From contig CAYOSQ010000003.1 in NCBI GenBank assembly GCA_964406665.1, forward strand, positions 102,641 through 166,640: DNA of 64,000 bases, in the 5' to 3' direction. This DNA is from an uncultured Planctomycetia bacterium (GTDB lineage Bacteria; Omnitrophota; Gorgyraeia; VGKH01; JBHPFN01). Numbering within the stretch: position 1 is the first letter of the stretch; each line of letters starts with the position of its first letter. The notes under the pieces were generated by a model. The model ran no database searches, was not told the DNA's origin, and saw only the letters and a list, made by a program, of their open reading frames with translations. A program made the position numbers and the translations under genes. Below are positions 13,282-35,776 of the stretch, piece by piece.

Positions 13282-14241
13282 ATGACCAAAAGAGTTGCTG
13301 ATTATATGACTTCAGACATTGAAAGTATTGATGGTGAACGCACAATACTGGAAGCAGTAATGTTGATGAGAAAGACACACGTTAGCTCGCTTCTTATAAA
13401 AGAAGCCGATAAGACCGTAGGTATCTTTACCGAGCGGGATTTGCTTACGAGGGTAGACGTTAACTCATCTTCCGGGTTTGATTCTATCAAGGTCAAAGAT
13501 GTAATGACTAAGGATTTGAAAACTGTAGATTGTTCTGAGGCCTATGTTGATGTGATTGAATTAATGCAGCATCATAGAATTCGACACACGCCTGTCTTGG
13601 AAAATGGAGAGATAGTTGGAATTGTCTCTTTAAGAGATTTGGTGGATCATTACTATGAAAATCTCGAGCATTTACTTGAAGAAATTATTGCTGCGTTATC
13701 TTCTGCCGTTGAAAAAAGAGACCCTTATACCGCAGGTCACCAAGAACGTGTCCGTCAGTTGGTTTTTGCAATCGCCAATGAAATGCAACTTCCCGAGAAA
13801 CAAAAAAGCGGGATCAACATGGCAGCGGTTATTCACGATATCGGTAAGATGTATGTTCCTTCAGAGATACTTGCTAAACCCGGAGCACTTTCTGAGGCCG
13901 AATTGACTTTAATAAGGATTCATCCTCAAGTTGGGTATGATATCTTAAAGGGTGTTGAATTTCCCTGGCCTATAGCAGAAATAGTATTACAGCATCATGA
14001 GAGGCTTGATGGTACTGGTTATCCCAAAGGTATGCATGGGGATGAAATTTTACTTGAGGCAAAAATTATTGGCGTCGCAGATGTTGTCGAAGCGATGGCT
14101 TCTCATCGTCCTTATAGGCCGGCACTTGGAATAGATAAGGCTTTGGATGAAATCAGCAAAAATAAAGGTACGGCGTACGAGTCTAGAGTTGTTGATATTT
14201 GCTGTAAGCTATTTAAAGAAAAAGGATTTCAGTTTAAATAA
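13282..14241 (+). CDS. CBS-pair + HD-GYP domain protein (putative c-di-GMP phosphodiesterase)
   Basis: Tandem N-terminal CBS domains, then the HD motif (VIHDIGK) and HHERLDGTGYP (GYP motif). Confidence 0.7.
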   Translation: MTKRVADYMTSDIESIDGERTILEAVMLMRKTHVSSLLIKEADKTVGIFTERDLLTRVDVNSSSGFDSIKVKDVMTKDLKTVDCSEAYVDVIELMQHHRIRHTPVLENGEIVGIVSLRDLVDHYYENLEHLLEEIIAALSSAVEKRDPYTAGHQERVRQLVFAIANEMQLPEKQKSGINMAAVIHDIGKMYVPSEILAKPGALSEAELTLIRIHPQVGYDILKGVEFPWPIAEIVLQHHERLDGTGYPKGMHGDEILLEAKIIGVADVVEAMASHRPYRPALGIDKALDEISKNKGTAYESRVVDICCKLFKEKGFQFK

Positions 14242-20972: not shown

Positions 20973-21812
20973 ATGGCAAATTTACGTCTATCACCTACCG
21001 GGAGCCTAGCTCTTTTTATAAATTGCCCCAGATGTTTCTGGCTACAGATGAATAAAAAGATAAAGAGACCCCGGGGAATTTTTCCGTCTCTTCCTTCTGG
21101 CATGGATATAGTAATTAAATCTTATTTTGATACTTACAGGAAAAAGAATTTATTGCCTCCGGAATTGGAGGGAAAAGTAGAGGGTAAATTATTCAGCGAC
21201 GAGCTCCTGCTTAAAAAATGGCGTAGTTGGAGAGCAACTAATTTAACTTATGAAGATAAAAAACTGGGTGCAACATTATCCGGTGCGCTTGATGATTGCT
21301 TGGTTGATAATGGTTTTTATGTACCTTTAGATTATAAGACTAAAGGGTTTGAGCCTACCAGAGAACAATCCTATCAGTTTTATAAGCTACAACTAGATTG
21401 TTATTGTCTTATGCTTGAAGAGAATGGTTATAAGACAAATGGTAAGGCATACCTGGTTTATTATTTTCCTAAATCTGTTTCAGCTAAGGGAAAAGTAAGT
21501 TTTGAAGTAATGCCTTTTGAAATCAAAACTGATTTTAATAATTCCAGAAAAATATTTGAAGAAGCAGTAAAATTATTAAAGGAACCTCTGCCAAAAACAA
21601 ATCCTGATTGTGAATACTGCAGTTGGCTTAATAAAGTAGAGCGTGAAAAAAAACGGTTTAAACCAGGCAGATTTTGGTTGGTAATTGAAATGAAACAGGT
21701 TAATAATCGACAAAACAAAACTCATCAGATGAAATCGCAGCATTCAGTTAAGGGGAAAAATCAGATTAAAAGAGCCAAGTACATTGAACAATTAGACAGG
21801 AGAGCCAAATGA
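20973..21812 (+). CDS. PD-(D/E)XK nuclease, Cas4/RecB-like, with 4-Cys cluster
   Basis: N-terminal CPRC, motif II D (DDCLVD), motif III PLDYKTK, QLDCY (QxxxY), and a C-terminal CEYCSW cysteine cluster; a basic C-terminal tail. Confidence 0.6.
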   Translation: MANLRLSPTGSLALFINCPRCFWLQMNKKIKRPRGIFPSLPSGMDIVIKSYFDTYRKKNLLPPELEGKVEGKLFSDELLLKKWRSWRATNLTYEDKKLGATLSGALDDCLVDNGFYVPLDYKTKGFEPTREQSYQFYKLQLDCYCLMLEENGYKTNGKAYLVYYFPKSVSAKGKVSFEVMPFEIKTDFNNSRKIFEEAVKLLKEPLPKTNPDCEYCSWLNKVEREKKRFKPGRFWLVIEMKQVNNRQNKTHQMKSQHSVKGKNQIKRAKYIEQLDRRAK

Positions 21813-22480
21813 ATCAAATTATTTTTGATATTGAAACCTCCGGAGCAGATTTTGATTCTTTAGATGAAACGTCTAAAGAGTATTTTCTTAAATATGCCCA
21901 AAGCGATGAAGAAAAACAAGAAGTAAGAGATAGCATGAGCTTTTATCCTTTAACAGCCCAGATTGTAGCATTAGGTATGCTGGATGCCGATAAAGATAAA
22001 GGGTATATGTTTTATCAGGATAAAGAAAATTCTAAAAAACGCTTCAACGAGGGCGGTATTGAATTTATTGCAGCAGATGAGAGGGAGATCTTGGAATATT
22101 TCTGGGCTCAGATAAAAGAATGTAGGCAGTTTGTTACATTTAACGGTAGAGGATTTGATGGTCCTTTTATTATGATCCGTTCAGCCATACTTAAAGTTAA
22201 GCCTACCAGAAATCTTGTGCCGTATCGTTATGACCATAAGCAGCATGTTGACCTTATGGATCAGTTAATGTTTTATGGGGCATCAAGGAGGAAATTCAGT
22301 CTGCATATGTGGTGCAAGGCTTTTGGAATTCCTAGTCCCAAAGAAGAAGGTGTTACAGGATTAGAGGTAAAGGACCTATTCAATCAAGGCAAATGCCTTG
22401 ATATAGCACGTTATTGCGTCGGTGATTTAAAGGCTACCAGGGCACTTTTTCATTATTGGGATAAATATTTGAAATTTTAG
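21809..22480 (+). CDS. RNase H-like 3'-5' exonuclease (PolB-exonuclease-like, COG3359/YprB type)
   Basis: FDIETSG Exo-I motif, later HVDLMD and YCVGDLKAT (Exo-III YxxxD); ATGA overlap with the upstream nuclease. Confidence 0.6.
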   Translation: MNQIIFDIETSGADFDSLDETSKEYFLKYAQSDEEKQEVRDSMSFYPLTAQIVALGMLDADKDKGYMFYQDKENSKKRFNEGGIEFIAADEREILEYFWAQIKECRQFVTFNGRGFDGPFIMIRSAILKVKPTRNLVPYRYDHKQHVDLMDQLMFYGASRRKFSLHMWCKAFGIPSPKEEGVTGLEVKDLFNQGKCLDIARYCVGDLKATRALFHYWDKYLKF

Positions 22481-22488
22481 CCCAAACC

Positions 22489-22516
22489 TTGAAAATCATC
22501 TAAAGTGTGCTATACT
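22489..22516 (+). promoter_or_regulatory. sigma-70-type promoter (TTGAAA-N16-TATACT)
   Basis: Near-consensus -35 and -10 with 16 nt spacing, immediately upstream of a GC-rich structured segment. Confidence 0.55.
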
Positions 22517-22521
22517 TTTAG

Positions 22522-22708
22522 TGCCGATAAAGGTAAACCCGGTGAAAGCCGGGGGCGCAAAGCCAACAGACCTAAGTTGCCTTTTGGCAGTGAACCTGCA
22601 GGATGCAGGTAAGCCGTGGCCGGCTAGGCTGTGAATGCTGTGGCGATATGGTGGCTGGGTTGCCGAAGTGGGAGGTGAACCAAGGTCTTTATCGGCCTTT
22701 TTTTTTGC
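22522..22708 (+). ncRNA. unclassified structured small RNA (~187 nt), possibly 6S-like
   Basis: About 55% GC against a roughly 35% GC background; 5' GCCGATAAAGG pairs with 3' CCTTTATCGGC, followed by a U9 tract; several internal hairpins (CCCGG-TGAAAG-CCGGG, TTGCC-TTTT-GGCAG, CCTGCA-GGA-TGCAGG); own promoter and terminator; no ORF. Confidence 0.45.
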
Positions 22709-22743
22709 CTTATTCTGCGTAACTTGTTTATTTCCAGTATAAT

Positions 22744-23043
22744 ATGAATAAAGACCATAATTTATATCAAGAATATCAGAAAAATAAACAAAAAGAGTAC
22801 GAGTCTTTATGCAGCCGCTGTGGTGCTTGTTGTGGTTCTTTCGAAGGAGATCCCTGTGAGCATTTGATTATGGATGAAGAAGGCAAATATTACTGCAATA
22901 CCTACGAAAACAGGTTTGGTTTAAAAAGGTCAAGAAATGGTCGAGAGTTCCTCTGTGTGCCTATCCGAAAAATCCTTTCTGAATCATGGTCTGGTTCCTG
23001 GCGTTGTAATTACAAAAAGGAACTGCGCCGTATCAAAGATTAG
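22744..23043 (+). CDS. YkgJ-family cysteine-cluster protein (putative zinc/iron-chelating domain)
   Basis: CSRCGACCGS (CxxCxxCC) motif plus additional Cys residues. Confidence 0.5.
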   Translation: MNKDHNLYQEYQKNKQKEYESLCSRCGACCGSFEGDPCEHLIMDEEGKYYCNTYENRFGLKRSRNGREFLCVPIRKILSESWSGSWRCNYKKELRRIKD

Positions 23044-24560: not shown

Positions 24561-25318
24561 AACGGTCAAAGATTTTAAATCTAATTTTTGCTATTTTTAT
24601 TGCTACAGCCATAATTTACCCTAACGTAAATAAACTTTCTGCAGATGACGTAATTGCTGAAAATAAAACATGTGAAATATTACCATTTAAGCAGGGAGAA
24701 AAGTTCATCTATGCGGTGAAGATGGCTGGTTTAAGCGTTGGAACCTCTGAGCTTATTTTTGATGGGATAGCAGAATTAGACGGCAAAGAAGTAATAGTGA
24801 TAATTTTTACTACCAAGATTACTAATTTTTTTGATGAAGAAAAGATATTCGCAGATAAAGAAACCTTTCTTCCCATAAGGGTAGAGCGCAACATTAATCG
24901 TTTCGGAAAAAAAGAATTTATTGTTGAAGAATACGACCAAGGTAATAATATTTTGACCATAACAAAGCAAACTGGAAACAAAGAAACGCAGCAGGTGATT
25001 GAAAAAGAATTACCACTTCAGAATATGATATGTTTTATATATAATTTTCGCAGAAGACAAAATTTGGAAATAGATGGTATAATAGATGTGGACTTACCGC
25101 TTAAAAAAGTAAGTTTTCAATCTGCTGGAGAAAAGAAGCTAAAGGTTTATGCGGGTAGATTCGAGGCTTTTTTAGTACAAAGCGTTCCTAAGAAATACAA
25201 CTTCTGGCTTTCTGCAGATAAAGATAGGATACCACTTAGGATAGATGGTGCGGTAGGCTTTGCTAAAACAAGAATGATACTTAAAGATTATGATTTGGAC
25301 GGGAAAAATGATGGTTAA
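24557..25318 (+). CDS. hypothetical secreted protein
   Basis: N-terminal signal peptide; no confident domain. Confidence 0.4.
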
Positions 25319-26480
25319 AAAGGGACATTTTTTACAGTTCGGCGGGCAGTTTGTTCCGGAGACTTTAATGACTTGTCTTAGCGAACTTGAGAAAATATAC
25401 GCAAAGGCAAAAAAAGATACTCGTTTTAAAAAAGAGTTAGATTATTATCTATCGGTTTACGCCGGAAGACCTACACCTTTATATTTTGCTAAGAGACTTT
25501 CTGAAAAACTGGGTAAAATTAAAGTCTATCTTAAAAGGGAAGACTTACTGCATACCGGGGCGCATAAGATTAATAATACTTTAGGCCAGGTACTTTTAGC
25601 TTTAAGGATGGGAAAAAAGCGCATCATCGCAGAAACCGGTGCAGGTCAGCATGGAGTTGCTACAGCAACAGTTGCTGCACTTTTTGGACTTAAGTGCGAT
25701 GTGTATATGGGTACTGAGGATATCGAACGTCAAAGGCTCAATGTTTTCAGGATGAATCTTTTAGGGACTAAAGTTATACCAGTAGAAAGCGGTTCAAAGA
25801 CTTTAAAAGATGCTACTTCCGAAGCCATAAGAGATTGGGTTACCAATGTAAAAGATACTCATTATATTATCGGTTCTGTGGTTGGTCCTTATCCTTATCC
25901 TGAGATGGTCAGGGATTTTCAGTGTGTAATTGGTAAAGAAACCAGGCAACAAATATTAAAAGCAGAAAAAAGATTACCCGATTGTCTTATTGCATGTGTT
26001 GGTGGAGGAAGTAATTCTATAGGATTATTTCATCCTTTTGTAAAAGACAAAAAAATTAGGCTTGTCGGTATTGAAGCTTCCGGATTAGGTATATCTAGCA
26101 ATAAACATGCAGCAACGCTAGTAAAAGGGCAAATCGGCATTTTACATGGAAGCAAAAGTAATCTTTTGCAAGATAAGTTTGGGCAGGTAAATATCGCACA
26201 TTCTATTTCTGCTGGCTTAGACTATCCCGGTGTCGGTCCGGAACATGCATATTATAAGAGCATTGGCAGGGCTGAATATTTTGCAGTTAGTGATAAAGAG
26301 GCCTTAGGGGGTTTTCAACTTCTTGCTGAAACAGAAGGAATTATTCCGGCACTGGAACCGTCTCATGCCATTGCATATTTAGGTAAACTTAGAAAGAAGT
26401 TAAAGAAAGGCGCTGTTGTTGTGTTGTGTCTTTCCGGGCGAGGAGATAAGGACGTAGAAACAGTTTCAAAGGTTTTATAA
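25308..26480 (+). CDS. trpB: tryptophan synthase beta chain
   Basis: [28 protein letters not shown] and GGGSN motifs. The start is probably Met7 (25308) rather than 25290. Confidence 0.9.
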
Positions 26481-26484
26481 TAAG

Positions 26485-27282
26485 ATGAAAAATAGAATTG
26501 AGAAAAAATTTGCAGAATTAAAATCAGCGAAGAAAAAAGCCTTTATCGCATTTATTACCGCCGGTGATCCATCACTTGATACAACCTATCGATTGGTTCT
26601 TGACATGGAAAAGCAGGGTGTAGATGTTGTTGAACTGGGAGTTGCGTTTTCTGATCCTTTAGCAGATGGACCAATAATCCAGGCAGCGTCTCAGCGTGCA
26701 CTTAAAAAAGGTGTAAATATACTGAAAATTTTAAAGCTTGTTAAAAAGCTGCGCAAGAAAACACATATACCTATTGTTCTAATGACTTATTATAATCCGG
26801 TATTTAAATTCGGCGATGAAAAATTCATAAAGGCTGCGAGGGGTGCAGGTGTTGACGGTGTGATTATTCCTGATTTACCTCCTGAAGAGGCAGCGACAAT
26901 GTTGAAATCTGCTAGAAAACATAGTATCTCCACGATATTTTTCTTATCTCCTACTAGTTCTAAGGAAAGAATTAAACTGATATCAAAAGTCTCCAGCGGT
27001 TTTATTTATTATGTTTCTTTAACTGGGGTAACGGGGACGCGCAGTGCGATTTCTGCGGATATTGTTAAAAATATTCGCTTAATTAAGAAATATACAAAGA
27101 AGCCGATTTGCGTAGGTTTTGGTATATCAAAATCAGAACATGTCAAAAAGATTTCTCGAGTTGCTGACGGAGTTATCGTTGGCAGCGCTATAGTAAAGCA
27201 GATTGAGAAAAATATTGGTAAAAAAGATCTGGTTGCTAAAGTGCTAGCTTTTATTAATAAGTTATCCAGTCCAATAAAATAA
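26485..27282 (+). CDS. trpA: tryptophan synthase alpha chain
   Basis: FITAGDP, ELGVAFSDPLADGP and GFGIS motifs. Confidence 0.9.
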   Translation: MKNRIEKKFAELKSAKKKAFIAFITAGDPSLDTTYRLVLDMEKQGVDVVELGVAFSDPLADGPIIQAASQRALKKGVNILKILKLVKKLRKKTHIPIVLMTYYNPVFKFGDEKFIKAARGAGVDGVIIPDLPPEEAATMLKSARKHSISTIFFLSPTSSKERIKLISKVSSGFIYYVSLTGVTGTRSAISADIVKNIRLIKKYTKKPICVGFGISKSEHVKKISRVADGVIVGSAIVKQIEKNIGKKDLVAKVLAFINKLSSPIK

Positions 27283-32952: not shown

Positions 32953-33333
32953 ATGGCAGAGAAAATTTTAGTCGTTGATGATGATACTAATTCAATCCAG
33001 GTAGCAGAGTCTACTTTAAAAGGTGCGGGTTATGAGGTAGTAACTATGCAGGATCCCAAGTTTGTATTTAAGGCAATAAAAATGGAAAATCCTGACCTTA
33101 TCATTTCAGATATTATCATGCCTCATAGAGATGGTTATGCACTTTGTAAAGAGGTTAAGGAATTATATGGAGATAGGATACCTGTTTTGCTTTGTACTTC
33201 AAAATCTTACGAAGAAGATTTAATCGAAACGGCCTACAAAGAATTTGGAGCAGAAGATTATATAATAAAACCTTTTAATACTGACGAGTTGCTTGAGAAG
33301 GTAGAGGCGCTTCTTAAGGAAAAAAAGGATTAA
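32953..33333 (+). CDS. stand-alone response-regulator receiver (CheY-like) protein
   Basis: KILVVDDD, phospho-acceptor D in IISDIIMP, and T/K positions conserved; no output domain. Confidence 0.75.
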   Translation: MAEKILVVDDDTNSIQVAESTLKGAGYEVVTMQDPKFVFKAIKMENPDLIISDIIMPHRDGYALCKEVKELYGDRIPVLLCTSKSYEEDLIETAYKEFGAEDYIIKPFNTDELLEKVEALLKEKKD

Positions 33334-35422: not shown

Positions 35423-35776
35423 ATGGATAAAAGAAAATCAGTTAGATGTAATAAAGAATTTAGCGTCTCCTATAAAGTTCACCAGGGTGGTGATTTTACA
35501 GAAACAGTTTGCCTGGTAAAGGACTGTAGCTTAGAAGGCATGAAGCTTTCAACTACTCAGTGGTTAAACCCTAAAGCAGTTTTAGAGTTTATTATTACAA
35601 AACCATTAGGAAAAGATCAAATTACAGTACTTGGTAAAGTCATAGATTGTGAAAGGGATAAAGAAAAAGGTCTGTATTCATCCAGAGTTTCTTTTATTCA
35701 ACTGGATGAAAAAACAAAAGACAAGCTGGCTGATACATTAGAGGAAATCCGCTGGTATAAAAAGAAGAATTTTTAG
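35423..35776 (+). CDS. PilZ-domain protein (putative c-di-GMP receptor)
   Basis: RKSVR (RxxxR) near the N-terminus and DCSLEG (DxSxxG) about 30 residues later. Confidence 0.55.
   Translation: MDKRKSVRCNKEFSVSYKVHQGGDFTETVCLVKDCSLEGMKLSTTQWLNPKAVLEFIITKPLGKDQITVLGKVIDCERDKEKGLYSSRVSFIQLDEKTKDKLADTLEEIRWYKKKNF

Follow-up and report, generated by a model that had tools for sequence, protein, structure and literature searches.

A class I cyclic di-GMP riboswitch in Candidatus Omnitrophota with a leader-complementary arm and a probable role in transcription termination

A 64,000-nucleotide stretch of contig CAYOSQ010000003.1 from an uncultured member of the Omnitrophota (here called the window) carries on its forward strand a GC-rich, structured element whose first part, at positions 22522–22667, is with very high confidence a class I cyclic di-GMP (c-di-GMP) riboswitch (RF01051, GEMM-I), as judged from its sequence. 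The element is a new member of a well-known RNA family and ordinary in kind. It probably controls transcription termination through a long-range helix between its 5′ leader and a complementary 3′ arm, as an ON switch for the gene of a 99-amino-acid cysteine-cluster protein located directly downstream.

The assignment rests on an Rfam cmscan of the whole window at gathering thresholds, in which RF01051 was the sole match, with 63 bits (gathering score, 35) and coverage of model positions 1–87 of 87 (E = 5.8e-10 for the whole window, 3.1e-12 for the region alone). A permissive scan of 22440–22780 likewise gave no other significant family. A preliminary description of this DNA had instead proposed an unrecognised RNA family, either 6S-like or distantly similar to the cobalamin riboswitch, a reading that we now regard as very improbable. 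A length of ~185 nucleotides and paired ends do recall 6S RNA superficially, but the RF01051 match is high-scoring and full-length, neither 6S nor cobalamin families gave a match at E≤10 in 22440–22780, and the interior is a riboswitch aptamer instead of the central bubble of 6S RNA. The segment that had been likened to the cobalamin core, AGGTAAACCCGGTGAAAGCCGG, and had been noted to lack a B12 box, is the P1b hairpin of c-di-GMP-I with its GAAA tetraloop, and the hallmark nucleotides and helices of this family are present and covarying. The preliminary description had itself named a confident cmscan match to a known family as the outcome that would end its claim of novelty. What survives of it is a structured noncoding RNA with its own promoter, paired ends and a U-run terminator.

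Comparative evidence comes from 15 Omnitrophota relatives (L008, L009, L010, L017, L033, L074, L112, L123, L154, L180, L128, L208, L210, L212 and L213), which together with the window make up the 16 members, or species, referred to below. They were gathered from the surroundings of homologues of the 99-amino-acid gene in 80 species-representative loci, from one metagenome pattern scan and from look-ups of the closest homologues. In the pattern scan, which used the 15-mer GCTGRGTTGCCGAAG, the 120 stretches listed were mostly chance matches, with 5 of them being real members after filtering with nhmmer. Look-ups of P0007, P0010, P0012 and P0014 added no elements, in part because the gene directly adjoins its upstream neighbour, and the sequences of L209 and L211 end short upstream. 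Four relatives also lie above the RF01051 gathering score, the relatives' scores being 36–72 bits.

All sequence-level hallmarks of c-di-GMP-I are present in the window: a full-model score, a GNRA-capped P1b, a receptor-bearing P2, the contact nucleotides and a position in a 5′ leader. According to the cmscan structure line, the P1b hairpin (22533–22558) opens with G22533–C22558 and U22534·G22557 and contains the stem CCCGGU/GCCGGG (22538–22543/22548–22553) with the GAAA tetraloop at 22544–22547; four of its pairs are changed on both sides among nine relatives. The junction GCAAAG and the 3′ tail UGCCGAA are likewise present in the aptamer alignment. P2, delimited at 22561–22661 by the cmscan alignment and by the consensus fold of the closest relatives, contains the tetraloop receptor, in which CCUAAG (22571–22576) and UAUGG (22647–22651) align to the model. 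The only large departure from RF01051 is a 61-nucleotide distal extension of P2 (22582–22642), inserted where the model has a loop of ~3 nucleotides. It folds into a longer stem with hairpins at 22594–22610 (ACCUGCA-GGA-UGCAGGU) and 22617–22631, with 7 of its 26 predicted pairs changed on both sides in five close relatives, and is missing altogether in L128; we conclude that it is a peripheral, lineage-specific three-way domain.

The ligand-binding part was read by mapping the cmscan alignment onto the base pairs published for Vc2, the aptamer of the Vibrio cholerae tfoY leader (PMC11705072). In this register, the 3′ tail GCCGAAGU at 22662–22669 provides the 3′ strand of P1a with C22664 and G22665 (Vc2 C93 and G94), followed by the bulged A22666–A22667. 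The tail GCCGAA is invariant in the 16 species, five of which were retrieved with a pattern containing it. Candidate P1a pairs are G22526–C22664 and C22525–G22665 and, beyond the AA bulge, C22524–G22668 and G22523·U22669 (2+2 base pairs). Apart from the last position, for which pairing is seen in 9 of the 12 members read, this short helix is invariant and thus offers no covariation. Since G22532, A22559 and the ligand-pairing C22663 match Vc2 G20, A47 and C92, all three identical in the 16 members, the predicted ligand is c-di-GMP. A G at position 20 marks c-di-GMP sensors, while an A marks sensors of cyclic GMP-AMP (cGAMP).

Some relatives depart from the standard aptamer layout. Insertions of ~50 nucleotides in L010 (about 1078–1126) and ~150 nucleotides in L017 (about 96–244) lie between P1b and the A47 junction, such that GACGCAAAG becomes G, the insert and then GACAAAAC. 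L180, on the minus strand, has an insertion inside P1b, and the L017 element is not reported by Rfam at the gathering level.

Transcription of the element most plausibly begins from a sigma-70-type promoter on the forward strand, at the site where the preliminary description had placed a promoter, with the −35 box TTGAAA at 22489–22494, a 16-nucleotide spacer, TG at 22508–22509 and the −10 box TATACT at 22511–22516. This extended −10 promoter scores 10/12 and is the best-scoring site (22489–22516) in the 2.5 kb scanned, with a predicted transcription start at ~22522–22524. The layout of (C)TTGAAAA, −10 box, ~6 nucleotides and leader is repeated in the 15 relatives. The GC-rich island is likewise real, with a GC content of 0.54 at 22500–22699 vs ~0.30–0.42 in the flanks. 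The whole 190-nucleotide fold has an energy of −74.5 kcal/mol (z = −2.3 vs shuffles), which is modest enough that folding energy alone would not have revealed the element. The internal hairpins noted earlier are present, both neighbouring genes lie on the forward strand, and no forward-strand open reading frame (ORF) of at least 40 amino acids is found in the element. A protein-coding reading was therefore rejected, and a 44-amino-acid ORF on the minus strand (22624–22758) is considered mechanical.

The aptamer is framed by two complementary strands. The first is the leader at 22523–22534, placed by the cmscan alignment on the Vc2 pairs: its GCCG is the 5′ strand of P1a (G22526 = Vc2 G14), AUAAA (22527–22531) corresponds to Vc2 15–19, G22532 to Vc2 G20, and G22533/U22534 form the base of P1b. 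The second is the 3′ arm GUCUUUAUCGGC at 22685–22696. Together they can form a helix, P0, in which G22523–G22532 and C22687–C22696 make 10 Watson–Crick pairs, extended by the wobbles G22533·U22686 and U22534·G22685 (10 + 2 G·U pairs in total). P0 ends at C22696, one base before the U9 tract at 22698–22706, the run of nine that the preliminary description had placed here and that follows C22697. Its claim of end pairing also holds (helix P = 0.97 in the unconstrained ensemble), but the 3′ letters it quoted do not, the actual sequence being GGTCTTTATCGGCC and not CCTTTATCGGC. We read this pairing as a riboswitch expression platform and reject a 6S-type closing stem. In length-wise folding, P0 reaches a probability of 0.97 once the CGGC of the arm is transcribed, and it is favoured by 9–14 kcal/mol over alternative states. 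Such a difference is about the binding energy of a ligand with picomolar to nanomolar affinity, as for Vc2.

Leader and arm recur throughout the relatives. Common to all 15 are the leader (A/U)GCCGAUAA(A/G)GG at the predicted start, the tail GCCGAA and the arm CUUUAUCGGC or a close variant of it, and the leader is near-invariant in the 16 species. The arm follows the aptamer tail at a distance of 16–95 nucleotides and pairs with the leader at 11–13 of 13 positions, so that 93% of cells pair vs 25–51% in slid registers. Pairing-preserving changes in P0 include A–U to G–C (L008, L208), A–U to U–A (L154), G·U (L128) and U·G (L180). Beyond the arm, 11 of the 16 members have a U-rich run (at least 7 of 9), and in L010, L017, L033 and L112 the arm and U-run have no local partner except for the leader or the tail. 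At the level of sequence, the solid point is that in 16 species the leader has an exact complement in a 10-nucleotide block that lies outside the aptamer, at variable distance.

The arm has further potential partners. It pairs more weakly with the aptamer tail (GCCGA/UCGGC) and, in several relatives, can additionally pair with a leader-like stretch of the spacer. It also takes part in a local mini-hairpin at 22682–22699 (AAGGUC-UUUAUC-GGCCUU), which was found by terminator scan and folding, abuts U7 and has an energy of about −6 kcal/mol (−6 to −11 kcal/mol across the window and its closest relatives). Both this hairpin and P0 have the form of an intrinsic terminator, i.e. a G+C stem 0–2 nucleotides before a U-run. 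The window's own element has no second terminator, unlike several relatives.

From what is shown above, namely the family membership, the anatomy, the conserved promoter, leader and arm, and the folding energies, the following sequence of events can be proposed. When c-di-GMP is absent, P1a would be unformed and the leader free, allowing the emerging arm to zip onto it and to form a P0 of 10–12 base pairs that would enclose the whole aptamer and end at the U-tract. RNA polymerase would then terminate, releasing an RNA of ~185 nucleotides closed at both ends. When c-di-GMP is bound, the GCCG of the leader would pair with the tail to form P1a, and the linker and G22532 would build the pocket. 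Both partners of the arm's CGGC would thus be locked and only the weak local hairpin could form, meaning that more polymerases would read through into the 99-amino-acid gene and beyond (ON).

The structural basis for this proposal is provided by Vc2, in which P1a consists of the pairs G11–C97, A12–U96, C13–G94 and G14–C93 and forms only with ligand, residues 15–19 and G20 lie in the pocket, and G20 and C92 contact the ligand (PMC11705072). P0 pairs the equivalents of Vc2 G11–G14, 15–19 and G20 and, in most members, extends over the two basal pairs of P1b. Because it takes the P1a strand, the linker and the ligand-contacting G, a full P0 would be incompatible with bound c-di-GMP, and by this structural reasoning P0 and the ligand-bound pocket should be mutually exclusive. 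The ligand would lock both copies of GCCG and leave the CGGC beside the U-tract without a partner, from which we infer a termination-type ON switch similar to Bc2 (see below); the exclusivity and termination itself are likewise inferences.

Several points weigh against such a switch. Only two P0 pairs are changed on both sides, a count reached by 128 of 500 shuffles; each arm was located by its complementarity, and both P0 strands are almost invariant. P0 covariation is therefore statistically not firm, as independent compensatory events are too few. The stem of the mini-hairpin covaries, reading AAAGCC/GGCUUU in L008, L208 and L213 and AAGAGC/GCUCUU in L210, where keeping this hairpin has meant the loss of three P0 pairs at the base. 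Since the arm can form a covarying local hairpin, termination may partly persist with ligand. The canonical P1a of the window amounts to just 2+2 base pairs with an AA bulge, four relatives have a poor U-run after the arm, and a second strong terminator, intact in both modelled states, is found in L008, L074, L009, L123, L154, L180 and L128. A role of the freed arm as an antiterminator of this second terminator was considered and rejected, for constrained folds leave the terminator intact both ways. As modelled, the terminator stem would be closed by a folded domain of ~150 nucleotides in place of a loop, and binding, transcript ends and termination are all computational predictions. Nor can the direction be assumed from the family, because the class I c-di-GMP riboswitches of Clostridioides difficile are OFF switches (PMC6200980).

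One alternative, unlikely in our view but deserving attention, is that the element is a stand-alone c-di-GMP-binding small RNA (sRNA) that is always terminated at U9, via P0 without ligand and via the mini-hairpin with ligand. The released RNA of ~185 nucleotides would then, with the same low likelihood, serve as a ligand buffer, have c-di-GMP-dependent stability or act in trans through an arm or spacer exposed in a state-dependent manner. The compact unit of a strong conserved promoter, an aptamer and a terminator fits this idea, as does the mini-hairpin at the U-run, which covaries in the closest relatives and reaches a probability of ~0.85 in a ligand-mimic fold; yet this hairpin has little stability in the window, and seven members lack it. 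Constitutive-looking second terminators, found in the seven relatives listed above, point the same way, as does the GH1-linked group, in which a conserved and perfect extended −10 element, TGTTATAAT, lies between the second terminator and the gene for a GH1 beta-glucosidase. There is also precedent in that terminator T2 of Bc1 from the Bacillus cereus group masks any c-di-GMP response (PMC11218506), and control by Vc2 over how stable sRNAs are that end at the aptamer has been described (bioRxiv 10.1101/617340). However, no target in trans is known, and the promoterless 99-amino-acid gene starting 37 nucleotides after U9 implies that some read-through must occur. Moreover, the element is always closely followed by an ORF of its own strand, with genes that vary by lineage (YcgN-like, 100-amino-acid protein, DAHP synthase, GH1), a pattern typical of cis regulators.

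A c-di-GMP-I OFF switch, in which the ligand promotes termination, appears less likely still. It could work along either of two routes, each of which we consider similarly doubtful: the basal GCCG/CGGC of the leader–arm helix might be the real, ligand-stabilised P1a, or a locked leader might let the mini-hairpin terminate, the ligand-free long-range helix being too slow. Four G–C pairs in GCCG/CGGC are indeed stabler than the canonical 2+2 base pairs of P1a with the tail, but P0 runs through the linker and the G20 equivalent, often into P1b, and cannot fully form with ligand bound, while the canonical P1a tail CCGAA stays invariant. The closest relatives do conserve the mini-hairpin, and L210 favours it over the base of P0, but relatives without it (L010, L017, L033, L112) would lack any ligand-bound terminator. 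A helix too slow for termination would also be too slow for antitermination, and the ligand-free helix ends at a U-run in most members, so it should itself terminate. The C. difficile switches nevertheless show that OFF control exists within class I.

The leader–arm ON switch favoured here can be placed among characterised systems. The window RNA shares with Vc2 the Rfam family, the GAAA-capped P1b, the CCUAAG/UAUGG receptor, the equivalents of G20, A47 and C92 and a short P1a that starts with G–C and C–G and has a bulged A on its 3′ strand. Unlike Vc2, it has a 61-nucleotide P2 extension, a 2+2 base pair P1a with an AA bulge and a leader-complementary arm followed by U9; Vc2 has been reported to be an OFF switch acting on translation and RNA stability, not via an intrinsic terminator (PMC11705072; bioRxiv 10.1101/617340). 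Closer in logic is Bc2 from the Bacillus thuringiensis cap leader, a terminator-type ON switch of c-di-GMP-I established by transcription in vitro and by reporters in vivo (PMC4933901). Bc2, too, has an intrinsic terminator between its class I aptamer and the ORF immediately behind it; this terminator forms without ligand and c-di-GMP gives read-through, as proposed for the window. For the window RNA, the arm is predicted to prefer the 5′ leader as its partner, and the whole aptamer would lie within the stem. In the dual terminator of Bc1, c-di-GMP unfolds T1 but not T2 (PMC11218506), which resembles the relatives with a second, apparently ligand-independent terminator (L008, L074, L123, L154, L180, L128 and L009), unlike the element of the window itself, whose U-run terminator is the only one, the ORF being preceded by no second hairpin.

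Within the same phylum, the c-di-GMP-I-GGC variant (RF03167) was found in L043 (2158–2235, 70 bits), with similar elements in L050 (~2113–2190) and L069 (~2875–2950), each downstream of the YcgN-like gene. These variants belong to the same clan and have a similar leader, CGAUAAAGGCAAA, but differ in their short P2, in a different expression platform and in lacking a leader-complementary arm; the element of the window scores best as standard c-di-GMP-I, not as RF03167. A further parallel concerns ON riboswitches of the pbuE type, in which a ligand-stabilised P1 competes with a downstream terminator strand by strand exchange. The tail–arm pairing GCCGA/UCGGC in the window is of the same kind, but the arm can also pair, and more strongly, with the 5′ side of P1 (leader, linker and G20), so that both of its partners would be locked once the ligand is bound.

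From these differences, one may tentatively ask whether the elements form a distinct Omnitrophota subclass of c-di-GMP-I, in which P0 encloses and inactivates the aptamer, the released RNA of ~185 nucleotides cannot bind c-di-GMP, a duplicated GCCGA double-locks the arm and the regulon is unusual. We consider this possible, though on balance unlikely. If it were true, the released, closed RNA would not soak up c-di-GMP. As read from the sequences, the three-way extension of P2, the leader-complementary arm with its duplicated GCCGA and the gene associations are unusual and, if confirmed, would interest riboswitch specialists. The topology of the expression platform, in which the terminator has the 5′ strand of P1 and the pocket as its pairing partners, would represent a compact design for ligand-gated termination if true.

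The presumed controlled gene (22744–23043, forward strand) encodes a 99-amino-acid CxxCxxCC cysteine-cluster protein with a weak YcgN-like match. Its N-terminus is conserved and there is no alternative in-frame start. A promoter scan found no promoter between U9 and its ATG; TATAAT at 22738–22743 was rejected as a promoter of this gene, as it abuts the ATG. Because the 37-nucleotide gap lacks a promoter and the N-terminus is conserved, the gene would be expressed only by read-through, which argues for cis control. The ORF lacks a Shine–Dalgarno (SD) sequence, while many other genes of the window have GGAG-type sites. It is followed on the same strand by genes for a 100-amino-acid CxxC...CxxC protein, an ArgE/DapE-type M20 deacylase and a DUF3108 protein and by trpB and trpA. 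The 99-amino-acid protein is also encoded on JGI marine metagenome contigs, and homologues are annotated as Candidatus Omnitrophota.

A same-strand ORF lies directly downstream of the element in 12 of 12 members checked, starting 46–197 nucleotides after the arm, and likewise in L208, L210, L212 and L213. The 99-amino-acid-type gene follows the element in L008, L009, L010, L074, L208, L210, L212 and L213. By type, the downstream gene encodes a YcgN-like protein in nine members, DAHP synthase followed by a YcgN-like gene in two, the 100-amino-acid protein plus M20 deacylase in one, a GH1 glycosidase in three and a membrane protein in one. The cluster of YcgN-like, 100-amino-acid and M20 genes is repeatedly found amid genes for aromatic amino acids, i.e. 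DAHP synthase, trpF (PRAI) and trpB/trpA, as seen in L017 and L033 (the ORF after the element), on the P0012 contig, in L212 (1516–2676) and in the window (25290–27282). An aromatic amino-acid gene context is unusual for c-di-GMP control.

These elements document c-di-GMP-I riboswitches in the uncultured phylum Candidatus Omnitrophota, for which a full-text literature search on c-di-GMP riboswitches returned only work on ComFB receptor proteins, and a candidate novel RNA is resolved as a known riboswitch class. The associated genes (YcgN-like CxxCxxCC, 100-amino-acid zinc-ribbon-like, M20 deacylase, DAHP synthase, trpB/trpA, GH1) are not the usual targets in motility, adhesion or biofilm formation and hint at c-di-GMP-controlled processes in Omnitrophota. 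If true, c-di-GMP would be linked to YcgN-like proteins amid aromatic and tryptophan genes, and to GH1 glycosidases. The window itself encodes candidate signalling components on its forward strand: a CBS + HD_5 protein of HD-GYP type (HHERLDGTGYP; 13282–14241) and a 117-amino-acid PilZ-domain protein (35423–35776), both of which would fit a c-di-GMP-using organism. A stand-alone response-regulator receiver is encoded as well (32953–33333, forward strand).

Some minor features of the elements and their surroundings deserve mention. The spacer between tail and arm contains a perfect SD-like motif, GGAGGUGA, at 22671–22678 (forward strand) with no start codon after it; the pattern RAGGUGA is kept at the same place in the window, L008, L208, L210, L212 and L213, and may mimic the leader, contact an anti-SD sequence or signal a pause. 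Until the arm has been transcribed, a self-fold of the leader (22523–22534; GCC with GGU/GGC) is predicted, which would hide the equivalents of G20 and G21; it appears in the consensus fold of nine relatives and in length-wise folding and may be a chance feature. In L123, L154, L180 and L128, the second terminator is conserved as AUCCCAAC...GUUGGGAU plus a U-run, with a loop of 8 to ~130 nucleotides, and L128 has a further structured leader, ~190 nucleotides long, in front of the GH1 start. Upstream of the element in the window (20973–22480), a PD-(D/E)XK nuclease gene (Cas4-like, below cut-off) overlaps by four nucleotides with a gene for a PolB-exo-like 3′–5′ exonuclease, and this nuclease/exonuclease pair is directly upstream in relatives as well (L213 1–831; L210 716–928). 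Finally, GC skew is positive throughout 20–25 kb of the window, and real-looking ORFs of at least 95 amino acids between 13000 and 36000 all lie on the forward strand, reflecting a strong strand bias.

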